A stretch of DNA of 64,000 bases, taken from the NCBI RefSeq assembly GCF_048403405.1, contig NZ_CP183129.1. One strand, written 5' to 3'. Origin of the DNA: Escherichia coli. Lineage in GTDB: Bacteria; Pseudomonadota; Gammaproteobacteria; Enterobacterales; Enterobacteriaceae. Shown here piece after piece: positions 41,757 to 53,139 of this stretch; the first letter of the stretch is position 1; the number at the start of each line of letters is the position of its first letter. Under the pieces are notes generated by a model. That model made no database searches. It saw only the letters and a program-made list of their open reading frames with translations, and was not told where the DNA came from. The translations under genes were made by a program, and so were the position numbers.

Positions 41757-42893
41757 ATGGGACAGAGTAAAAAATTGAATAAACAACCGAGTTCGCTTTC
41801 ACCGCTGGTGCAATTGGCGGGAATTCGCAAATGCTTTGATGGTAAAGAGGTCATTCCCCAGCTGGATCTGACTATCAACAATGGCGAGTTCCTCACGCTG
41901 CTTGGCCCTTCTGGCTGCGGTAAAACAACCGTTCTTCGCCTGATTGCAGGTCTGGAAACTGTTGATTCCGGACGCATCATGCTGGATAACGAGGACATCA
42001 CCCACGTTCCGGCGGAAAACCGCTATGTGAACACTGTTTTCCAAAGCTACGCACTTTTCCCCCACATGACCGTGTTCGAAAATGTGGCCTTTGGGTTACG
42101 CATGCAAAAAACCCCCGCTGCTGAAATTACGCCCCGCGTGATGGAAGCCCTGCGGATGGTGCAGCTGGAAACCTTCGCTCAACGTAAACCGCATCAGCTT
42201 TCTGGTGGTCAACAGCAACGCGTCGCCATTGCTCGCGCGGTGGTTAACAAGCCTCGTCTGTTGTTGCTGGATGAGTCGCTCTCAGCGCTGGATTACAAAC
42301 TGCGCAAACAGATGCAGAACGAGCTGAAAGCGCTACAGCGTAAGCTTGGCATTACATTCGTCTTCGTGACTCACGATCAGGAAGAAGCACTCACCATGTC
42401 GGACAGGATTGTGGTGATGCGCGATGGTCGCATTGAGCAAGACGGCACGCCGCGTGAAATCTACGAAGAGCCGAAAAACCTGTTTGTTGCTGGGTTTATT
42501 GGCGAAATCAATATGTTTAACGCCACTGTCATCGAACGTCTCGACGAGCAGCGCGTACGCGCCAACGTTGAAGGCCGCGAATGTAATATCTACGTTAACT
42601 TCGCCGTTGAACCGGGGCAAAAACTGCATGTTCTGCTGCGCCCGGAAGACTTACGTGTTGAAGAGATTAACGACGACAACCACGCTGAAGGGCTGATTGG
42701 TTACGTTCGCGAGCGTAACTACAAAGGCATGACGCTGGAGTCGGTTGTTGAACTGGAAAATGGCAAGATGGTGATGGTCAGCGAATTCTTCAATGAAGAC
42801 GACCCTGACTTTGACCACTCTCTCGACCAAAAAATGGCCATTAATTGGGTAGAAAGCTGGGAGGTCGTACTGGCTGATGAAGAACACAAGTAA
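41757..42893 (+). CDS. potA: Spermidine/putrescine ABC transporter ATPase PotA
   Basis: 378-aa ORF with Walker [10 protein letters not shown], signature LSGGQQQR, Walker B LLLLDE. Confidence 0.95.
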
Positions 42894-43740
42894 GTTCCAG
42901 AATGTAGTGATTGTCACTATTGTCGGTTGGCTTGTGTTGTTTGTCTTTCTGCCCAACCTGATGATCATTGGCACCAGCTTTTTGACCCGCGACGACGCCA
43001 GTTTCGTCAAAATGGTCTTTACGCTGGATAACTACACGCGTCTGCTCGATCCGCTCTATTTTGAAGTGCTATTGCACTCGCTGAATATGGCGCTGATCGC
43101 CACCCTCGCCTGCCTGGTGCTGGGCTTTCCTTTTGCCTGGTTTCTGGCGAAGTTGCCACACAAGGTGCGTCCGCTGCTGCTGTTTCTGCTGATTGTTCCG
43201 TTCTGGACCAACTCATTGATTCGTATCTACGGGCTGAAAATTTTCCTCAGCACCAAAGGCTATCTCAACGAGTTTTTGCTCTGGCTGGGCGTTATCGATA
43301 CACCAATTCGCATCATGTTCACACCCAGTGCGGTGATTATCGGTCTGGTTTACATTCTGCTGCCGTTTATGGTGATGCCGCTGTACTCCAGTATCGAAAA
43401 ACTGGATAAGCCGTTGCTGGAGGCGGCGCGCGATCTCGGTGCCAGCAAGTTGCAGACCTTTATCCGCATCATTATCCCACTGACGATGCCGGGGATTATT
43501 GCCGGATGCTTGTTGGTGATGCTGCCAGCGATGGGCCTGTTCTATGTGTCCGACCTGATGGGCGGTGCGAAAAACCTGCTGATCGGTAACGTCATCAAAG
43601 TACAGTTCCTCAATATTCGTGACTGGCCGTTTGGTGCAGCCACCAGCATTACGCTGACTATCGTAATGGGCCTGATGTTGCTGGTTTACTGGCGCGCTTC
43701 TCGCTTGCTGAATAAGAAGGTGAGCGAATTAGATGATTAA
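42877..43740 (+). CDS. potB: Spermidine/putrescine ABC transporter permease PotB (3' end abuts prophage DNA)
   Basis: 287-aa ORF, multi-TM permease with EAA-like loop ([23 protein letters not shown]); overlaps potA end; potC does not follow. Confidence 0.9.
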
Positions 43741-43971
43741 TCCTTTATATTCAATGCATTAAGTTTGTTTTTGAGTGGTTTTGCCGTTTAAGGTAACGGC
43801 GTTATAGATCCTATCAAAATCAATCAATTCCATTCTGGTTTTGGAGAAAGATTTTTCGAGAGCTTCGGTCTTTAACTAAAACTGATTGCGTATAATCCCA
43901 ATACCCCTCCCCGACTATCTGAATGGTCGGGGAGGCACTTCAAGCACAAAATATCATCCCTGCGCCGTTGA

Positions 43972-44238
43972 TTACTCTGCAGGTGAAGTCGGCCACTCAA
44001 TATCAGGTGCAGTTGATGTATCAACACGATTCAACAATACCCGATATTTATTCCATGCCTCCAGCAACGATCTTTCTTCCGCCGTTGCGATTTCCAGATC
44101 TACAGCATCCTGCAGTGGCGCAATATACTCACTGAATTCCTGGATGTGGAACTGTGTGGTGACGGTCTTCCAGTCATTCGGCTCCTGCTGTATCGAAGCA
44201 TACCAGGCTATTTCAATATCGCTATGCTGCGGCAGCAT
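43972..44238 (-). CDS. Tail fiber assembly protein fragment (Tfa C-terminal domain homolog, 88 aa)
   Basis: C-terminal 50 aa (...[52 protein letters not shown]) near-identical to the end of the full tfa at 45018-45602. Confidence 0.6.
43991..44134. repeat. Direct repeat copy 1 of tfa 3' end (about 85% identical to 45040-45183)
   Basis: ggccactcaatatcaggtgcagttgatgtatcaacacg... shared by both loci; also upstream shared motif ataatcccaat...gattactc. Confidence 0.85.
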
Positions 44239-44294
44239 TTAACCCCTTGTAATTCATCGCCATAATTGATTTAATTCACAAATAAAACTATAAC

Positions 44295-44963
44295 ATGGTG
44301 AAATCAATGAAAAAAAACACAGATGATGGGGCTAAAATTTACACACCACTTACCCTAAAGCTTTATGACTGGTGGGTTTTGGGAGTATCAAATCGGCTTG
44401 CATGGGGATGTCCTACAAAGGAACACCTTCTTCCACACTTTCTGGAACATGTAGGTAACAACCATCTGGATATTGGTGTTGGAACTGGGTTTTACCTTAC
44501 TCACGTACCTGAGAGTAGTCTGATATCTTTAATGGATTTGAACGAAGCTAGCCTGAACGCGGCATCTACAAGGGCTGGGGAATCAAAAATTAAACATAAA
44601 ATTAGCCATGATGTTTTTGAACCTTATCCCGCGGCGTTACATGGTCAATTTGATTCCATTTCCATGTTTTACCTTCTTCACTGCCTGCCTGGAAATATAT
44701 CTACAAAAAGCTGTGTAATACGCAATGCGGCGCAGGCCTTAACTGACGATGGAACTCTATACGGAGCCACAATTCTTGGCGATGGAGTTGTGCACAATAG
44801 CTTCGGTCAAAAACTGATGCGCATTTACAATCAGAAAGGCATCTTTTCAAACACAAAAGATTCCGAAGAAGGCTTAACACATATACTCTCAGAGCATTTC
44901 GAGAATGTTAAAACCAAGGTTCAAGGTACTGTAGTAATGTTTTCCGCTTCAGGGAAAAAATAG
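44295..44963 (+). CDS. Class I SAM-dependent methyltransferase (prophage moron)
   Basis: 222-aa ORF with Rossmann motif I (HLDIGVGTGFYL) and acidic motif II (LISLMDLNEASL); markedly AT-rich relative to flanks; opposite strand to phage structural genes; alternative start at 44307 (MKKNTDDG). Confidence 0.7.
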   Translation: MVKSMKKNTDDGAKIYTPLTLKLYDWWVLGVSNRLAWGCPTKEHLLPHFLEHVGNNHLDIGVGTGFYLTHVPESSLISLMDLNEASLNAASTRAGESKIKHKISHDVFEPYPAALHGQFDSISMFYLLHCLPGNISTKSCVIRNAAQALTDDGTLYGATILGDGVVHNSFGQKLMRIYNQKGIFSNTKDSEEGLTHILSEHFENVKTKVQGTVVMFSASGKK

Positions 44964-45017
44964 CATCCAACCGCAGCACGTTCTTGCTTAAGACGTGCTG
45001 CGGCATAATCCCAATGA

Positions 45018-45602
45018 TTACTCCCTGACAGGGTTCGTAGGCCACTCAATATCAGGTGCAGTTGATGTATCAACACGGTTCAGCAACACCCGATACTTTT
45101 TCCAGGCTTCCAGCAATGAGGTTTCTTCCTCCGTTGCAATTTCCAGATCTGCAGCATCCTGAAGCGGCGCAATATGCTCACTGGCTACCTGCATCAGGTT
45201 GTTTTTTGTTTCTTCCGCCTCCCGGATCCGGAACAGTTTTTCTGCTTCCGTATCCTTCACCCAGGCTGTGCCGTTCCACTTCTGAAACTCCCCTTCCGGC
45301 GATAACCAGGTAACATTTTCCGGTAACGGACCGAGTTCAGAAATAAATAACTCGTCCCCTGACGCTACGTCATAAACCGTTTTCCCCCGATGGTCTTCAA
45401 CGAGATGCCACGATGCCTCATCACTGTTGAAAACAGCCACAAAGCCAGCAGGAATATCTGGTGGTGCAATATCGGTACTGTTTGCTGGCAGACCTGTATG
45501 AGGCGGAATATATGCGTCACCTTCACCAATAAATTCATTAGTTCCGGCCAGCAGATTATAAATTTTTATGGTCCGTGCTTGTTCACTCATTCTGAATGCC
45601 AT
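45018..45602 (-). CDS. tfa: Tail fiber assembly protein Tfa
   Basis: 194-aa [82 protein letters not shown]... recognised as lambda Tfa-like. Confidence 0.9.
45040..45183. repeat. Direct repeat copy 2 of tfa 3' end
   Basis: See copy 1; the two copies bracket the methyltransferase gene. Confidence 0.85.
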
Positions 45603-48600
45603 TATGCAAGCCTCACAATATAGTTAAATGCGATGTTTTTGACGGTGTTTTCCGCGTTACCCGCAGCGTTAACGGTGATGGTGTGTCCATGTGAACCAAT
45701 CGCAACGGAGTGCGTATGCGCACCAATACCTACAGTATGTGCATGTGCGCCAGAACTTGCTGCAGTACCAGACAGCGAGTGGGTATGAGCACCTGCTGAC
45801 TGTGTCTGAATACGTTGATAATACGATCTATAGGAAGAAGTCTCCGGGCTTACTTGATACTGTGAATTCTGGACATAAGTGAACCCACCGCCATCATAAA
45901 ATGCTAACGCAGAACCGCCGCCTCCTGGCCAACGAATACCATTACCATGAGTATGAACACCGGCAGACCCCGTAGAGCCACTCAGACTGTGCGTATGCGC
46001 CCCGGTGTTATTCGTGGATTTAGTGCCGTAATCAAACGACGATGTGGTTTTCGTCCCCAAATCCGTACTGGATGCGCTGGCGCTGTGGGTGTGCGATTTT
46101 ATGCCGTCCTGTTCCTGAGACAATACGGCCCGGCCACTGGCGGGTTTGCCCTTGATTGTCCAGCCGCGCATATCTGGAATAACACCTGAAGGATAGGCAA
46201 TAGCCAGTTTCGGATATGCTGCCTTATCAAACGTCTGCCCCTGCATGATCGCATAACCTGCAGGTGGTGTATCTGATGGCCACGGCAGCGGAACACCTGG
46301 CGGAAACGCTTCAATATTTGCCGAGCCGTCAAATTTTACGCCGTTAATTGTCCTTGCAGTTTGCAATTTGGTTGCTGTGCTTGCATTACCCGATAAAGAT
46401 CCAGTGATACCACCACTCGCGTTTAATTTAGTTGCAATTGTAACATTGCCAGTATGGTTACTAATTATAAACGGCCTTAAGCTATTGTGCGTACCAAGAC
46501 TGTTACCCGAATCTGTCAACATAAAATATGTGTTTGATCCATCATTTCGGATAAAGAATCCATAGTTGCCATAGGCAATACGCAGACCATTTGCTGACCT
46601 TGAAATAACCTCACCAGCAGCAGTTAAACCACCTGAAAGAGTCCCTCCAGTTAATGCCAATGCCCCAATATTTGAAGGGGTCAATGTGATATTTGCACTA
46701 CCATCAAATGACACACCGTTAATCGTTCTGGCTGCCTGAAGTTTCGTGGCGGTCGCAGCATTACCTGTAGTGTTTTGATTACCGGTAGCGTTGACTCCAG
46801 GCAAGTTGATATCTGCCGATCCATCAAATGCCACGCCCCCAATCTTACGTGCTGTCTTGATCTTGGTCGCAGTATCTGCGTTTCCGGTCAAATTACCAGT
46901 AACACTACCACCAACTTTTAGTCCATTACCGATGGACACCAACCCTGATCTTAAGTTTATAGAGAATGGTCTTAATGAACCGATGTCTCCATTTTCCCCC
47001 TCCCCTTCATTAGTCGGAATAAGATGAAGATGATCTTCGGAACGCCTAAAAATAAGGCCAAAGGCTTGGTTGAATATTCGAAGAGCATTTATCGTGCTGA
47101 TTTTTAACTGCCCTCCCATTGTGTCGCCAGTTTTTTGAACTGAACTATCTTTAACAGTTTTAACTGCCTTTGGCGTTGCCGCCAGCTTTTCACTGGTGCT
47201 GTTTGTTGCACTGCTGAGCTGTACTATCCCCTTTTTCGTCGTGCTCGCATCCTCCAGCGCCACGGCGGATGCAATATCCTCTGCCCGTTTTGCTGCTGTC
47301 TCGGCGCGCGTTGCCGCGGATTCAGCAGCAACTTTGCTCTGAGATGCAGCCGTCGCACTGCCTGCCGCCTCTGATGCTTTCGTTGTTGCTGTCGTGGCAC
47401 TACCTTTCGCTGCTGACGCTTGTCTGGTCGCCTCATCTTTTGAAGCAGACGCAGATGATGCCGATGACGCCGCTGAACTGGCTGACGATGCGGCTGCCGC
47501 CTTAGAGGAAGCAGCATTGTCTGCTGAAGTCTTTGCATTTGTTTCAGAGGTTTTTGCTGCAGAAGCAGACCTCGCTGCTGCAGTGGCTTGCTCAGTGGCT
47601 TTGCCAGCCTTCGTTGTGGCTGTTGAAGCGGATGATGCGGCGCTTTCTGCCGATTTTCCGGCGGCGGTGGCACTGGCTGAGGCCTGCCCGGCACTTGTTG
47701 ACGCGGCACTGGCAGATAATGCAGCCGCTGTTTTTGAACCTGCCGCAGCTGAGGCGCTCTGTCCCGCTGCTGTTTCAGAAGACTTAGCGTTCGTCTCGGA
47801 CGTTTTTGCCGCCTTCGCGGAATTTCCTGCCGCCGTTGCCGAGGAAGCTGCACTACTGGCACTTGATGATGCATTCGTTTCTGAAGATTTCGCTGCCTCT
47901 TTTGAGGCCGCCGCACCCCGTGCCGAGGTGGCAGCTTCTGACGCCTTCATGGTCGCTGTGGATGCAGAAGTGGCTGCCGATTTTTGTGATGCTGCGGCAT
48001 TCGTTTCTGACGTTTTCGCGGCACTGGCGCTGGTAGCTGCCGCGCTTTTTGATGACTCTGCAGCAGCAGCACTTTTTGCTGCTTCACGGGCCTTTGTCGA
48101 TGCCGTTCCTGCGCTGGAAGACGCTGACTGAGCCGACGACGCGGCCTGTCCGGCTGACGTGCTGGCGGCACGTGCTGAGGCTGCAGCATCGGTTGCATGA
48201 GTTGCCGCCTCGCTGGCTGATGCACTGGCATCGCTGGCTGATTTTTTCGCGGCTGCCGTATTCTGTGCAACCGCGGAGGCGTTACGTGACACCTCTTCCA
48301 CCATCTGCTCAAAGCGGCGCAGTGCCTCCGGTCGGACATCATCCTCCGTCATGGCACCGAGAAAATCATTCAGCGTACCTGGTCTGGAACCTTCATAGAC
48401 GGTAATGGTCCCGGCATGTGAAGGCGGAAAACCTTCAACCAGCAGGGTGACGCTGTACTGGCCATGCTCAACATCCATGCTGTAACGTCCGGCTTCATCC
48501 GGATTTTCAGAGGCCACCGTGTTCACCACCACCGTGCTGCTGGTTCGTCTGGCCTTCAGCACAATGGTGCAGTTCTGTACTGGTTTTCCTGTGCCATCTT

Positions 48601-48628
48601 TAAGCACGCCAGAAATTTTTACTGTCAT
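45602..48628 (-). CDS. stf: Side tail fiber protein Stf
   Basis: 1008-aa ORF; lambda-Stf-like N-terminus ([30 protein letters not shown]), long Ala/Ser/Thr-rich low-complexity shaft, C-terminal receptor-binding region. Confidence 0.85.
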
Positions 48629-48640
48629 ACTTTTCCACCA

Positions 48641-48672
48641 ATAAAAAAAGCCCGCAGCAGTGACGCCACGGG
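48641..48672 (-). terminator. Intrinsic terminator downstream of lom
   Basis: On minus strand: agcccgtggcgtcactgctgcgggct hairpin followed by ttttttatt. Confidence 0.5.
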
Positions 48673-48779
48673 CTTCAGGACAGTGTAACTTTACGTTTCC
48701 TCAAACGCAGTTCACCCCATAAGGTGGATGAACCTGCGTATCATAACAATATTTACAGAAGATAAATCGGCGTCTGTTG

Positions 48780-49379
48780 TCAGAAACGGTATCCGATACC
48801 AACAATAAATGCATCCGTTCGCCAGTCGCCACTACCGGAACCTTCATAAGCAAGGTCAATGGTTACGGATTCGGTCGGGTTAAACTGCACGCCAGCCCCC
48901 CACGCCAGAGACGTGTTGCTGTGGCGACCGTCATCACTTCCGGTCAGCACATCGTGCGTTTTCCCCTTGTTGTCAGTTACGCGGAGATAATCCCCGGAGA
49001 AAGTCGACACACGGCTGTAAGCCACACCCACCATCGCATACGCGCTGAACCATTCATTCACGCGTACAGACGGCCCCGCCATCACGCTGAACCAGCGGTT
49101 ACGCACGGAATCTTCATGCCAGCGGGTATCGCTGTAGTGCGTTTTTTGCTCATCCTCAGCATTGGCATAACTGAAGGACGTAATCAGCCCCAGCGCGTCC
49201 GTAAACTCATAACGGTATTTCACGTTAATCCCGTTCAGATTATCGCTGCCGGGAGCGTTCGTACGGGCATGAAGATACCCCGCGCTCAGTGTGGACTGAT
49301 GTTCAGACGCCCATGCAGGCGCACCGGATACGGACAGACAGATGGCTGCGGACAAAATGGCTGCACAAACTTTACGCAT
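48780..49379 (-). CDS. lom: Lom-family outer-membrane beta-barrel protein
   Basis: 199-aa ORF with signal peptide MRKVCAAILSAAICLSVSGAPAWA and C-terminal ...IGYRF; Ail/Lom family. Confidence 0.85.
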   Translation of the reverse strand: MRKVCAAILSAAICLSVSGAPAWASEHQSTLSAGYLHARTNAPGSDNLNGINVKYRYEFTDALGLITSFSYANAEDEQKTHYSDTRWHEDSVRNRWFSVMAGPSVRVNEWFSAYAMVGVAYSRVSTFSGDYLRVTDNKGKTHDVLTGSDDGRHSNTSLAWGAGVQFNPTESVTIDLAYEGSGSGDWRTDAFIVGIGYRF

Positions 49380-49446: not shown

Positions 49447-52400
49447 TCAGCTGATACTGATGCCTGCGGTGGCTTTCTTCATCACCACAACCAGCAAATC
49501 GCTGATACTTGCTGTGGGATACCAGTTATTCACCAGCCATGCTGACACCGAAAACTCCAGCGTCATGTGGCCGCGACCAGCTGGCATATCAATAACACCA
49601 CTGTAAATCAGCGTATTATCCAGCGCGGTACGGTTATAAATTTCAGCACCGTTTTTCCGTACTATCAGGCGGCATGACGAATAAGTATCGCTGTTCTCCC
49701 GCTCATGTCTGGCACCGCTGAAAGCCACCGCCGGAATAACAATCTGCCGGTTAAACGGCTGATCGTCATAAACCCTGACGGTAATGGTTCCTGATGGCCA
49801 ACGCTCCGGTGCACGGGAGTCACGGGGGAAAGCCTTACCCACTGTTTTAACGAGATCGCCTTCAATCTGGTTTGCAGACAGTTTCCCTCTGATGACACAG
49901 TTCTCGTTAATGGTGACATTATTGAGCGTGCCGGTATTCGCCGTGATGGCTCCACTGATATCCGCATTGCGGGCTGTCAGCCTGCCATCCGGCGTCAGGG
50001 AAAACGTAGGAGGATTGCCGGATGACGTGATGCTCACCGCAAACAGTCGCTTCAGGAACACGTCGTTCATGAACAGCTGATTCCCCTGCGCCACAAACAG
50101 CGGCGTGGTGTTGCCATTCTCCGGGGTAATCATCGCGATACGGTCCGCCTGCAGCAGAATACTGCTCAGCGTCTGACCATCAACATCCTCAATCCCCGCA
50201 CCAATCCCGGCCACATAGGGAATACCGTTTTTTGTTTTCTGCACCTTCAGCATATACATGGCATTCAGCTCATTGCGCGTGTCTGACTGAACCCGCTGGA
50301 TTTGCTGTATGGTCACGGCCTGGTCACCCAGCTTTTTATCCGTGGTCGAGGTAATTTCACTCCCTTTTTTATCCACGTACTGGCGGACCTGTGCTATCTG
50401 TCGGGCGTTTTCTGACTGCCCCTGGCTGACAGTCTGTGAGATTTCACTGCTCACCCGGTCCACTTTCTGGCTCACCTGCGCGATGGCCAGTGTCTGGTCC
50501 TCATTCTTTTTCGCAACCAGCTGCGTGAGGCTGTTTTCCGCCTTCCCGATTTTCCGGGTCACTTCTGCGATATCCGTGTCCATCCGCTGACGGATGTCTT
50601 CTTCCAGTTGCGTGACCTCCGTACGCAGCGCTGAAGCATCAATGCGCTCTTTCAGTGCCTGGCCCAGAAGCGTCTCATCTATCAGCCCCCGGAAAATTTC
50701 CAGATACCCTTCACCATCATTGCTGGGCTGCCCGCTGGCTTCCACAAAAGCAGATTTTCCCACCAGGTTGACGCTTCGCACGTAAAACCAGAAATCCGTC
50801 CCCGGCTTAATCCGGCTCCCCTGGACAGTCCACTGACTGCCGGTCCCCAGATAACGGGCAGATTTTTCCACCTGTGCCGTGTTCGTGATGCGTTTTTCTG
50901 AGAACCAGAATTCAAACTGTACCGTCGGGTCATACACCGCAAGACGCGGGACCGCCGTTATCTGAAAATACCCCGGCGTCAGCTCAATGGTGGCGGGTTT
51001 TGCAGGCGCGTTAATCCGGAAGGTGGTGGTCGCAGGTTCGCCCTGCTGGCCGTAGCTGTTAATGGCCCGCACCGTCAGGGTGTATTCCCCCAGTGGCAGG
51101 CCGCTGAAACGGTGCTCCGTGTCTGCGGTGATGGCGGTGGTCACCAGTCTGGCATCCGTTCCCTTACCACTGGTCAGGCGCAGACTGAAGCGCACACCCT
51201 TCACCACCCGCGGCGTGTCCCATTTCGCCTGCGCCAGATACTGGCCGTCAGCTGCGCTCACCTCCACCGTCAGGTGCTGCACTGCCGGTGGGATGACGCT
51301 GTTCAGGGAACCTGACTGCGGCTCAAAGCGGGCACCGTTATCCACGATGGCTTCTTTTTCCGGTACGTGCTGCACCGCCGTGATGGCAAAGGTGCCGTCC
51401 GTGTTTTCCCGGACGGAGACACAGCGGAACAGGCGACGGCGCAGTGACGGCAGGGAGAGTCCCCACACCCCGTATGTCTCCACACCATCAGGCAGGGTAC
51501 TGACCTGTATCCGGTCCGGCGCGGGGTGTTCGGTGATGTCCACACTCACTGGCTTACCGCTGCCGTTAATCAGGTTCACCGTGGCGGCACCGGTCTCCGG
51601 AAGTGTCACTTCACGGTCCAGCGTCAGGGTGCGGGTGGCAGCATCAATGGACAGGACACGTCCGCCGGTCAGGGTCCCGGCATAGTCGTTATCACAGATT
51701 TCAATGATGTCACCGGGTGTGTGCCGCAGCCCCTGAGACCCGAGCGTGAAATCCACCGTCTGCGTTTCCAGCAGTTCGGTCTTTATCACCCACAGTCCGG
51801 CACGGTGGGCCTGACCGCGGCTGGTACAGCCGAACGCGTCCATCTTCAGCAGGTTGCGTCCGTAGCGCAGTATGGCTTCCGGGTCTTCCACCAGTTCCGT
51901 GGAGGTCTGCCAGCCGTTCTGCGGGTCGGTGTAATTCACCTCCACCGCCGTGTGCCGGTCCTTCAGGGCACTGAAGCTGTAGCGGAATCCCACGCCGTTA
52001 TCATCCACCACCACATCGCTGTTGGTGTACGGCCACACCACATCCGACGGGCGGTCCTGAACGAACGTCAGCGTCTGACCGTTCCATACCGGCATACAGC
52101 GCATCGCAGAGCAGAAATCACTGAGAACGTCCCACGCCTTACGCTGTTGTGCCAGGTACGCATTAAAGGTCATCCGCGGCTCGGTCCCCCCGAAACCATC
52201 CGGGACCGTCTGGTCGCAGTACTGCCCGATGGCATACAGCGCCCACTTGTCCACATCCGCCGCCCCCAGACGTTTTCCCATGCCGTAGCGCGGGTGAGTC
52301 AGCATGTCCCACAGGCACCAGGCCGGGTTGTTGCTGTATGCCGGTTTCAGACTGCCGTCCCAGATACCACTGTACGTGCGTTTTTCCGGGTCATAGTTTG

Positions 52401-53139
52401 ACGGCACCTGGATGATACGACCGCGGATATGGTAGTTCACCGTCATCTGCTGGCCGCCGAACTGCTCCGCATCCACCTGCAGCCCCACAATGGCCGTGTT
52501 CGGGTAGCACTGTTTCACATCGATGATTTCGGTGTATGACGACCACAGCGTCTTATTCTGCAGCTGGTCCGTGGTGCTGTCCGCCGTCTCCCTGACCATC
52601 CGGATGTTAAAGGGCCGGGGAGGCAGATTATCCAGAATCACCGAGGCCAGGAACTGTGAGGTGGTCTTGCCGTTAATGGTGACGTCCTTTTCTGTCACCC
52701 AGTTACCGTTACGCTGTAACTGAATCAGCAGGCGGACGGTTGCCGGGTTACGGTCACCCTTTGAGGTGGTCTCCACCAGTGACTGCACCCCGAAGGTAAC
52801 CCGCAGGCGGTCAATGTTCGCGGACGTAATGGTGCGCGTCACCGGTTTTGCCTTCGTCACTTCCACGCCCAGTCCGGTTTCAGCTCCGGAGGACTCAAAG
52901 CCTTCCGGTGGTGTCTGCTCCTGCTCCCCGGCACGCCAGACCGCGGTCACACCGTGTATCACGGGATTACCGTCCGTGTCCGTCAGCGGGGTTTTGTTCA
53001 CCAGAATACTCTGCAGTCCCTTCACCGGACCTTCTATCGGTCCCTCACCAATCGCATCAATCACACTCATCATCTGCGTGGATTTGAGATTATCCTTCGC
53101 CTCACGAGGCGTGTGTGCCTTACCGCCACCTTTTCCCAT
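49447..53139 (-). CDS. J: Tail tip host-specificity protein J
   Basis: 1230-aa [55 protein letters not shown]..., lambda J-like. Confidence 0.9.

Follow-up and report, generated by a model that had tools for sequence, protein, structure and literature searches.

The locus described here belongs to a window of 64,000 nucleotides of Escherichia coli DNA, the whole stretch that was analyzed. A lambda-like prophage has integrated there in the 3' end of potB, and the locus is its attR-proximal end (Table 1). Homology to K-12 potB stops at 43722, the phage-type sequence common to the window and the CDT prophage L008 begins at 43712, and potB is given a new C-terminus (SELDD*) by the prophage. The terminal arm that follows is a putative Int arm-binding region. 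In a strain whose locus is 100% identical, the whole prophage encodes int, xis and a RecE-like exonuclease. The full-length tail fibre assembly gene, tfa, shows 94% DNA identity to lambda tfa, and between it and potB lie a methyltransferase gene and a short reading frame, here designated tfa'. No Chi site is present in 43700-45700.

Table 1. Features of the potB-stf interval (window coordinates; a dot marks features without assigned strand)
Feature	Position	Strand	Basis or remark
Chromosome/prophage junction (attR core region), inside potB 3' end	43712..43722	.	Homology comparison
Prophage terminal arm, att core to tfa-downstream motif	43723..43891	-	GC 0.36-0.44
11-mer ATAATCCCAAT, copy 1	43892..43902	-	Read from sequence
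67-bp indel with hairpin; native tfa-downstream allele of potB-type prophages	43903..43969	-	
tfa' (TfaX-like), chimeric ORF of 88 aa	43972..44238	-	Matched over its full length by phrog_2341, E=2e-60
Repeat copy 1, conserved tfa 3' segment (Tfa C-terminal domain)	43988..44145	-	Repeat search and protein match
Non-Tfa 5' part of tfa', 31 codons, AAGGGG Shine-Dalgarno and ATG	44146..44238	-	phrog_3893-related
Divergent intergenic region with promoter-like site for methyltransferase	44239..44294	.	
ybcY-like class I SAM-dependent methyltransferase, 222 aa, cargo	44295..44963	+	Pfam Methyltransf_12/23/25/11
Perfect hairpin common to convergent methyltransferase and tfa genes	44971..45003	.	-23.9 and -28.5 kcal/mol, z=-4.7 and -3.7
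11-mer ATAATCCCAAT, copy 2, directly abutting GATTACTC	45005..45015	-	Read from sequence
tfa, full-length, 194 aa	45018..45602	-	Tail fiber assembly family phrog_105, E=9e-101
Repeat copy 2, conserved tfa 3' segment	45037..45194	-	Repeat search
stf, side tail fibre gene, 1008 aa (context)	45602..48628	-	

The methyltransferase belongs to phrog_2132 (E=4e-157), a family of unknown function in PHROG, and is 96.7% identical in DNA sequence to K-12 ybcY. Its GC content is 0.41-0.43, as against 0.50-0.55 in the flanking tfa and stf genes. NCBIfam matches lie far below the cut-offs, and the sequence matches in PDB are weak (UbiG and juvenile-hormone acid methyltransferases, E ~1e-3). A role of the cargo as a defence system was considered and rejected, the PADLOC match being non-significant (mad2, E=0.009). 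The gene may be expressed from the lysogen. Its promoter-like site (TTAACC-16-CATAAT, 44239-44266, plus strand) is a consensus match only, and 2 such sites were found against a shuffle expectation of 3.5; the ybcY/tfaX spacer of K-12 is a listed binding site of the RpoD holoenzyme and H-NS, with RNA polymerase binding in vitro (PMC3946193). The hairpin behind the gene is a putative terminator that lacks a T-run; a related hairpin lies 3' of tfa in lambda, and 44955-45003 recurs behind an alpha/beta-hydrolase gene in L008. Since the hairpins have no T-runs and the promoter call does not exceed the shuffle expectation, the sequence alone gives weak support to a promoter and terminator of the cassette's own, as the moron picture has them.

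The initial annotation described tfa' as sharing a near-identical C-terminal end with the full tfa gene on the same strand, and both observations hold. A repeat search returned a single two-copy family of direct repeats, 158 nt in length and 87% identical (21 mismatches; longest identical run, 38 bp), at a spacing of 1049. Both copies are in-frame tfa 3' ends on the minus strand, and at the protein level the 88-aa product of tfa' agrees with residues 137-191 of the 194-aa Tfa at 46 of 55 positions (E=3e-30). Between the copies, dN/dS is 0.22 and 15 of 25 differences fall at third codon positions; these values indicate two lineages that diverged as functional tfa genes, and not a recent duplication in place. 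Substitutions specific to copy 1 are also present in tfa' genes at other chromosomal sites. The tfa' gene belongs to an old lineage travelling with ybcY, represented in K-12 by tfaX, and the duplication arose elsewhere than at this locus.

The view of tfa' as a truncated Tfa is correct for its conserved C-terminal domain but not for its N-terminal part. The Tfa families phrog_105, phrog_188 and phrog_136 match residues 28-87 only (E ~1e-18 to 1e-22), no Tfa profile matches residues 1-31, and the N-terminal fibre-binding domain of ~130 residues is absent. Instead, phrog_3893 matches residues 3-37 (E=3.9e-5), and the N-terminus is identical at 18 of 36 positions to a 79-aa ORF of Klebsiella phage Kp4882-3 (E=2e-10). 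The ORF is a fragment or chimera rather than a complete member of the Tfa/Caudo_TAP family, and PGAP labels it a tail fiber assembly pseudogene without N-terminus. The first ~31-37 residues are similar to an unrelated 79-aa phage family (phrog_3893), and in this chimera they precede the C-terminal domain that is conserved in Tfa. The origin of the first joint between tfa' and ybcY is a reconstruction based on a single distant homology (50% over 36 residues).

The 3' terminus of tfa' exists in at least four alternatives, of which the potB type (~890 genomes), the R26 type (901) and the K-12 type (830) are common. The fourth, the TNPVRE type, is documented in a few loci only; full-length tfa genes match its junction as well, so that a junction-specific count did not discriminate. 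Damage to tfa' is found elsewhere: in K-12 and PhiR68_2 a nonsense codon shortens it to 61 aa, in 2G7b the ORF is split by a 7-nt deletion, and the last 14 codons are unrelated or decayed in the R26-type copies. The exact 88-aa sequence occurs on at least 1000 contigs. Note that the 90% protein cluster of tfa' also includes Ea22-like proteins, which by eye have no similarity to it, so that the clustering was taken as an artefact. In strain EC-14-2-9, PGAP calls a 'DinI family protein' pseudogene antisense to the 5' part of tfa'; NCBIfam supports no frame for this call.

The motif downstream of tfa is duplicated as well, ATAATCCCAAT and GATTACTC being present behind both copies. GATTACTC, which contains the stop codon, is located at 43970-43977 and 45016-45023; in copy 1, exactly 67 bp after the stop codon separate it from ATAATCCCAAT. 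These 67 bp contain a hairpin with a 13-bp stem (43906-43935; -26.3 kcal/mol and z=-3.5 on the plus strand, -30.8 kcal/mol for the minus-strand RNA). The extra sequence and its hairpin were correctly noted at the outset, but the view that the truncated copy alone acquired them by insertion was rejected, since the 67 bp lie behind the full-length tfa in O104:H4 and E2348/69 and so does, in the CDT prophage L008, a 58-bp version. A MITE or other mobile mini-element was likewise rejected: the sequence occurs at 934 places in 931 genomes, that is, once per genome, in a single context that is always beside a tfa end. Inspection by eye revealed no terminal inverted repeats or target-site duplication.

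The unique core of the cassette is present in 3839 of 5426 complete E. coli genomes (71%), at up to four places per genome. At least 30 closed genomes carry 43700-45650 with 100% identity, and in 1106 genomes a match spans 80% or more of this segment; the arrangement of tfa, ybcY-like gene and tfa' is also found in the isolated phages PhiR26_1, R29, R30, 2G7b and ev243. On the other hand, the cassette is absent from lambda, and the same potB prophage lacks it in ~40 genomes, including O104:H4 and E2348/69. These empty alleles were identified using a synthetic 'cassette-deleted' query, which the ~40 potB prophages match end to end in one piece.

Comparison with such an allele locates the junction. 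O104:H4 is identical to the window at all 265 positions of 43723-43987, which comprise the arm, the 67 bp and the last tfa codons beside potB. Beyond these 265 bp, its tfa gene is closer to copy 2 (117/120) than to copy 1 (100/120), which places the junction in the shared 38-bp identical stretch. In the window, copy 2 has O104-type sites upstream and last codons of the R26/K-12-tfaD type, and copy 1 has sites of the tfa' lineage followed by last codons of the potB type. The O104-type structure fits a pop-out deletion and an ancestral empty site alike. Breakpoints relative to other phages fall at equivalent positions of both copies (43991/45040, 44014/45063 and 44145/45194; eight other loci), and the cargo beside the tfa segment varies: pin with ynaE, catalase/ferritin genes, appY-ompT, hydrolase-ompT, or cdtABC. 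The proposal that the conserved tfa 3' end served as the crossover site is thus borne out by the empty potB alleles and the position of the junction, and variable cargo is repeatedly bounded by this segment. The absence of a Chi site weighs against it, as does the limited homology: the copies are only 87% identical and share no perfect run longer than 38 bp, close to the minimum for efficient exchange by RecA, so that such events should be rare.

Several other explanations of the two copies have to be weighed. The direct repeat, and nothing more, would be accounted for by an assembly artefact or by a local tandem duplication with later insertion of the methyltransferase gene; this explanation is refuted by the independently closed genomes, the isolated phages and the occurrence of copy-1 substitutions elsewhere. 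In addition, the copies differ by 13%, whereas the surrounding prophage is 98-100% identical between strains, and we give practically no credence to this explanation. A Pin/Gin/Cin-type invertible switch was dismissed in the initial annotation, on the ground that no invertase is present and the copies are co-oriented. A relic of such a switch, which lost its invertase and was rearranged to direct orientation, might be suspected because in PhiR68_2 and phage Turner the full tfa is separated from ybcY-tfa' by ynaE and an invertase of the PinQ/PinR type, and because in a trp-adjacent prophage remnant the module has as its neighbour a genuine invertible segment, which includes convergent tfa genes and a resolvase. 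The lack of an invertase is a property of this prophage (the potB-stf interval has none, nor does the whole prophage of the strain with the 100% identical locus), whereas in other prophages a Pin-type invertase sits close to the module. Even in those relatives, however, tfa' lies outside the invertible segment and keeps both its orientation and its partner ybcY. At the present locus, the two copies are in frame and directly repeated, 43700-49000 contains no inverted repeat of at least 20 nt, tfa' has no adjacent alternative C-terminal exon of stf, and its N-terminus is not Tfa-like; the dismissal stands, and descent from a switch is very improbable.

It is also conceivable that each repeat is a small-RNA gene (IS009, Rfam RF02111) instead of a coding remnant. 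With cmscan, 45061-45259 scores 225 bits, above the gathering score of 117, while 44012-44215 scores 108.8 bits, below it; in K-12, the match is the 3' part of tfaD. Both matches, however, are in the sense orientation within tfa reading frames, and the third-position bias and low dN/dS described above favour protein constraint, which makes a small RNA a highly unlikely source of the repeat. In the literature on ybcY, tfaX and IS009, the genes appear in listings, and no study of the arrangement was found. A different question is whether tfa' is itself a functional small gene, in which case an orphan Tfa trimerisation domain that had gained a new N-terminus, expressed from the lysogen in divergence from the methyltransferase gene, could modulate the resident tail-fibre assembly or poison that of a superinfecting phage. 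The intact ORF with its Shine-Dalgarno sequence and ATG, the conservation of the exact protein on so many contigs, the existence of an 88-aa PHROG family of its own and the in vitro binding of RNA polymerase to the K-12 spacer all fit this idea. Against it, tfa' is broken or altered in K-12, PhiR68_2, 2G7b and the R26-type copies, it is called a pseudogene by PGAP, and it owes its high copy number to hitch-hiking with ybcY. Moreover, in Tfa the N-domain is variable and binds the fibre, while the C-terminal domain is conserved and serves trimerisation (PMC9608196), and it is the fibre-binding domain that tfa' lacks. We consider a function of tfa' unlikely.

The locus is thus best explained, with a high degree of confidence, as a moron-type cassette between tfa and att that was moved by recombination on direct tfa 3' ends; the recombination scar originally suggested is supported. 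The cassette consists of the ybcY-like methyltransferase gene, with its promoter-like site and flanking hairpin, and a leftover tfa', in which the start of a small phrog_3893-type phage gene is joined to the C-terminal domain of a diverged Tfa. In this way, two direct, in-frame copies of the 158-bp tfa 3' end bracket the cassette. What keeps this segment conserved in lambdoid phages is the conserved Tfa domain that it encodes at the C-terminus; the segment therefore offers a homology stretch for general recombination, which could move the cassette into, or out of, any phage with a related tfa gene. Either host RecA or the prophage's own RecE-like system would presumably supply the enzymes. A joint reading goes further, and we hold it to be improbable: ybcY and tfa' might form a self-propagating cassette whose 'homology arms' are maintained and are not debris, and which general recombination carries from one prophage to another, unrelated one, and a TfaX-like protein from the lysogen might interfere with the tail-fibre assembly of competitors. 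If the homology-arm reading were true, it would explain the frequency of the cassette (71% of E. coli genomes) and its occurrence at as many as four sites in one genome.

Under the recombination explanation, the locus is a clean example of lambdoid prophages swapping cargo beside tail-fibre genes, with the tfa 3' end as the homologous joint and with filled- and empty-site alleles coexisting at one chromosomal position. For annotation, the region can be designated a K-12 tfaD-ybcY-tfaX module, and Rfam IS009 'sRNA' matches in such regions can be flagged as coding tfa 3' ends. Beyond such bookkeeping, the significance is small.

The closest known system is the cryptic prophage DLP12 of K-12, in which tfaD-ybcY-tfaX (b0561-b0563), followed by appY and ompT, has the same three-part collinear order and orientation. 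Over 1465 bp (43992-45456 of the window), the DNA identity is 96.7%, and the chimeric 5' end of tfa' and the divergent spacer are the same; the architecture is therefore already known. However, in DLP12, ybcY is a pseudogene, tfaD is truncated N-terminally, and tfaX has its nonsense codon and a different, more diverged 3' terminus, with the appY-ompT cargo behind it. In the window, by contrast, none of the three ORFs is disrupted, and tfa' continues into a potB-type tfa end and attR.

Morons and the mosaic joints of lambdoid phages are the concept of Hendrix and Juhala. The cassette resembles a moron in being an extra gene amid conserved phage genes, directed against the late operon, with lower GC content, a flanking hairpin and a promoter-like site, and in being missing from close relatives (lambda and the O104:H4 potB prophage). 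It differs in that it is bounded by homologous gene-end repeats, so that gain and loss can use homologous instead of illegitimate recombination. Exchangeable cargo loci of lambdoid phages, such as cdtABC, ompT/appY and effector loci, occupy the same niche between tfa and att. In particular, the CDT prophage L008 has the same tfa-downstream allele with hairpin, followed by cdtABC, although the cargo here is a methyltransferase and not a toxin or protease. Finally, the Pin/Gin/Cin segments (Mu G, P1 C and e14 P) also contain duplicated tfa-family sequences near tail-fibre genes, and some relatives of the present module have an invertase nearby. Here, however, the repeats are direct and there is no invertase, inverted crossover site or alternative fibre tip; recombination is driven by homology rather than being site-specific.

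The repeat search returned one long direct pair, copies 1 and 2 (158 nt, 87% identical, spacing 1049), each the in-frame 3' end of a tfa gene. The short TfaX-like ORF, tfa', matches residues 137-191 of the full-length Tfa (46/55 identical, E=3e-30), and ATAATCCCAAT and GATTACTC accompany both copies, which confirms that the two ORFs share a C-terminal end and a downstream motif. An invertible switch had been excluded in the initial annotation, and this holds: both copies are on the minus strand, 43700-49000 contains no inverted repeats of at least 20 nt, and no invertase occurs in the prophage of strain 7/2, a strain with 100% identity to the window at this locus.

Features at the prophage end (gene calls in the window; the prophage tail genes are on the minus strand)
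Feature	Position	Strand	Remark
pepT, potA, potB	41757-43740	+	E. coli chromosomal genes, then the end of a lambda-like prophage
ATAATCCCAAT, copy 1 side	43892-43902		read from the sequence
Hairpin	43906-43935		13-bp stem, inside the 67 bp
GATTACTC, copy 1 side	43970-43977		holds the stop codon; read from the sequence
tfa'	43972-44238	-	88-aa ORF
Copy 1	43988-44145
Methyltransferase gene	44295-44963	+
Segment with hairpin 3' of methyltransferase gene	44955-45003
ATAATCCCAAT, copy 2 side	45005-45015		read from the sequence
GATTACTC, copy 2 side	45016-45023		holds the stop codon; read from the sequence
tfa	45018-45602	-	194 aa
Copy 2	45037-45194
stf	45602-48628	-
lom	48780-49379	-
J	49447-53139	-

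Homology to K-12 potB ends at 43722, and the new potB C-terminus comes from the prophage; within 43700-43745 the last codons are swapped from KKVELE-stop in K-12 to KKVSELDD-stop. In strain 7/2 the prophage is a lambdoid element of ~48 kb with int and xis at its far end and a RecE-like exonuclease. The whole prophage separates potAB from potCD, and the window contains neither potC nor potD. Spurious long ORFs on either strand of 47200-48130, such as 47224-47916 (-) and 47394-48131 (+), stem from the repetitive, Ala/Ser-rich composition of the N-terminal half of stf.

Tfa-family profiles match only residues 28-87 of tfa', and over its first ~35 residues the match is to an unrelated family of 79 aa, phrog_3893 (E=3.9e-5). 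The member of this family in Klebsiella phage Kp4882-3, just upstream of a umuD-like gene, shares 18/36 aligned residues with the tfa' N-terminus (E=2e-10). On this profile evidence tfa' is a chimera, in which another gene supplies the ribosome-binding site, start codon and ~31 codons, and the reading frame continues into the conserved C-terminal domain of Tfa. The reading of tfa' as a truncated tfa is thus correct for that domain, not for the N-terminal ~31-35 residues. The C-terminal domain of Tfa is conserved, helical and involved in trimerisation, and fibre binding belongs to the N-terminal domain, which varies (PMC9608196, a summary of North et al. 2019); this accounts for the conservation of the tfa 3' end as DNA in phages whose fibres differ. 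PGAP labels tfa' a pseudogene. It has a nonsense codon in K-12 and PhiR68_2 and a 7-nt deletion in 2G7b, and the last codons of the R26 type (named after PhiR26_1) are decayed. The 90%-identity protein cluster containing tfa' is represented by an Ea22-like 199-aa protein with no similarity to tfa' by eye, probably a clustering artefact. The PGAP annotation of some genomes includes a frameshifted fragment named "DinI family protein" on the strand opposite the non-Tfa 5' part (3495-3574 of compared locus L016, about window 44140-44219, + strand); no NCBIfam model supports any frame of these ~90 bp.

To test the recombination reading, we made a query with 44146-45194 removed. About 40 genomes, including O104:H4 2009EL-2071 and EPEC E2348/69, match it end to end in one piece with potB alongside. 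Starting at the att junction, the O104:H4 sequence is identical to the window for 265 bp, a stretch that takes in the 67 bp and reaches the last tfa codons; past a 38-bp stretch common to both copies (43988-44025 = 45037-45074), its gene is copy-2-like (117/120, vs 100/120 for copy 1). In the window, copy 2 has O104-type sites upstream, and its last codons and downstream hairpin are of the R26/K-12-tfaD type; copy 1 has tfa'-lineage sites (common to K-12, R26 and 2G7b), then a potB-type end. A recent duplication at this locus was considered as the source of both copies and rejected, since 15 of their 25 differences are at third codon positions and dN/dS is 0.22, so the copies diverged within working tfa genes. 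The allele pattern fits three routes equally: a cassette circle may have integrated through one crossover within the conserved segment, two crossovers may have taken place with a DLP12/R26-like donor, or a deletion may have run in the reverse direction. The cassette-less potB alleles and the O104:H4 junction support the proposed recombination scar with the tfa 3' end as crossover site, and point to ordinary homologous recombination within this conserved end of the gene as the likely mechanism.

The gap between ATAATCCCAAT and GATTACTC in copy 1 is exactly 67 bp. These 67 bp are indeed extra length with a hairpin, as initially described, but are not an insert into a truncated copy, because they also follow full-length tfa elsewhere, in cassette-less prophages; the CDT prophage has a 58-bp version. 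The 67 bp occur at 934 places in 931 genomes, once per genome and always adjoining a tfa end. Since lambda has the order stop codon, spacer, hairpin and a sequence resembling GTATTGG..TTAT, the layout with the hairpin before the 11-mer is probably older and that of copy 2 derived. The hairpin 3' of the methyltransferase gene recurs, 92% identical, at 1017-1065 of L008 (the CDT prophage of strain 2009C-3133), directly 3' of an alpha/beta-hydrolase gene that neighbours cdtC; it may be a boundary element common to cargo genes. A 45-aa ORF (44908-45045, -) across the methyltransferase 3' end, this hairpin and the tfa 3' end, labelled "hypothetical protein" by PGAP and "nucleocapsid protein" in other genomes, is probably spurious.

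The tfa 3' segment is also a recurrent boundary of variable cargo, the point of the comparative check proposed earlier. Breakpoints against eight further loci sit at equivalent positions of the copies (43991/2 = 45040, 44014 = 45063, 44145 = 45194), and others at 45003 and 45138. At least four kinds of tfa' 3' terminus occur: the potB type (about 890 genomes), the R26 type (901), the K-12 type (830) and a copy-2-like TNPVRE type at a trp-adjacent prophage remnant. In this window nothing lies between tfa and the methyltransferase gene (ybcY); PhiR68_2 and Turner have pin+ynaE there, and an O157 strain has catalase/ferritin-like genes. Beyond tfa' lie attR, appY-ompT, hydrolase-ompT or IS66. The CDT prophage lacks the cassette and has cdtABC beyond its own tfa. 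At 3833-4257 of L008 the potB-type arm is kept, together with the 11 bp from the att core region of potB, and is followed by cdtABC, not potB; later cargo appears to have enclosed an old attP arm. Partial deletions also occur: ybcY is missing from phage Ayreon, and the 3' half of ybcY from strain PEC011. The PEC011 deletion spans 44490-45039, and the Tfa of this variant, 220 aa long, continues into the methyltransferase gene antisense; the record is labelled plasmid pPEC011-1 (517 kb), but looks like chromosomal sequence because it carries pepT-potAB and the prophage. In the trp-adjacent remnant (L019-L021), ybcY-tfa' adjoins a tail-fibre segment that contains a resolvase and convergent tfa genes; the opposite orientations of this segment in different assemblies indicate a genuine invertible switch.

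Pfam (Methyltransf_12/23/25/11) places the methyltransferase among the class I SAM-dependent enzymes; the PHROG function entry of its family, phrog_2132, is "unknown". NCBIfam matches are far below cut-off, a PADLOC search gave no significant match, and PDB sequence matches are weak, to UbiG-like O-methyltransferases. The gene has a lower GC content than its neighbours and a promoter-like site just upstream; the K-12 ybcY spacer is bound in vitro by RNA polymerase and H-NS (PMC3946193). Rfam RF02111 (IS009, listed as an sRNA gene) matches both repeats, with 225 bits at 45061-45259 (-) and 108.8 bits at 44012-44215 (-), in tfa coding sequence on the sense strand, and its top match in K-12 is the 3' part of tfaD. 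One RNA-seq/Ribo-seq study left IS009 out of its ncRNA analysis, among RNAs expected to have ribosomal footprints (PMC5331693). It seems that this family models a protein-coding segment as an RNA.

The arrangement is neither an artefact nor rare. An assembly artefact is ruled out by at least 30 closed genomes with 43700-45650 100% identical and by the isolated phages PhiR26_1, R29, R30, 2G7b, ev243, Turner, Kati and PhiR68_2. At least 80% of this region is covered in 1106 of 5426 complete genomes, and 3839 genomes contain the unique cassette core (44146-45017) with 95-100% identity, some of them in as many as four places. The feature is a common module of lambdoid prophages that is already annotated: in PhiR26_1 the methyltransferase is "putative uncharacterized protein YbcY", and the K-12 cryptic prophage DLP12 contains tfaD, ybcY (a pseudogene) and tfaX, then appY and ompT, with tfaD-ybcY-tfaX 96.7% identical to window 43992-45456.
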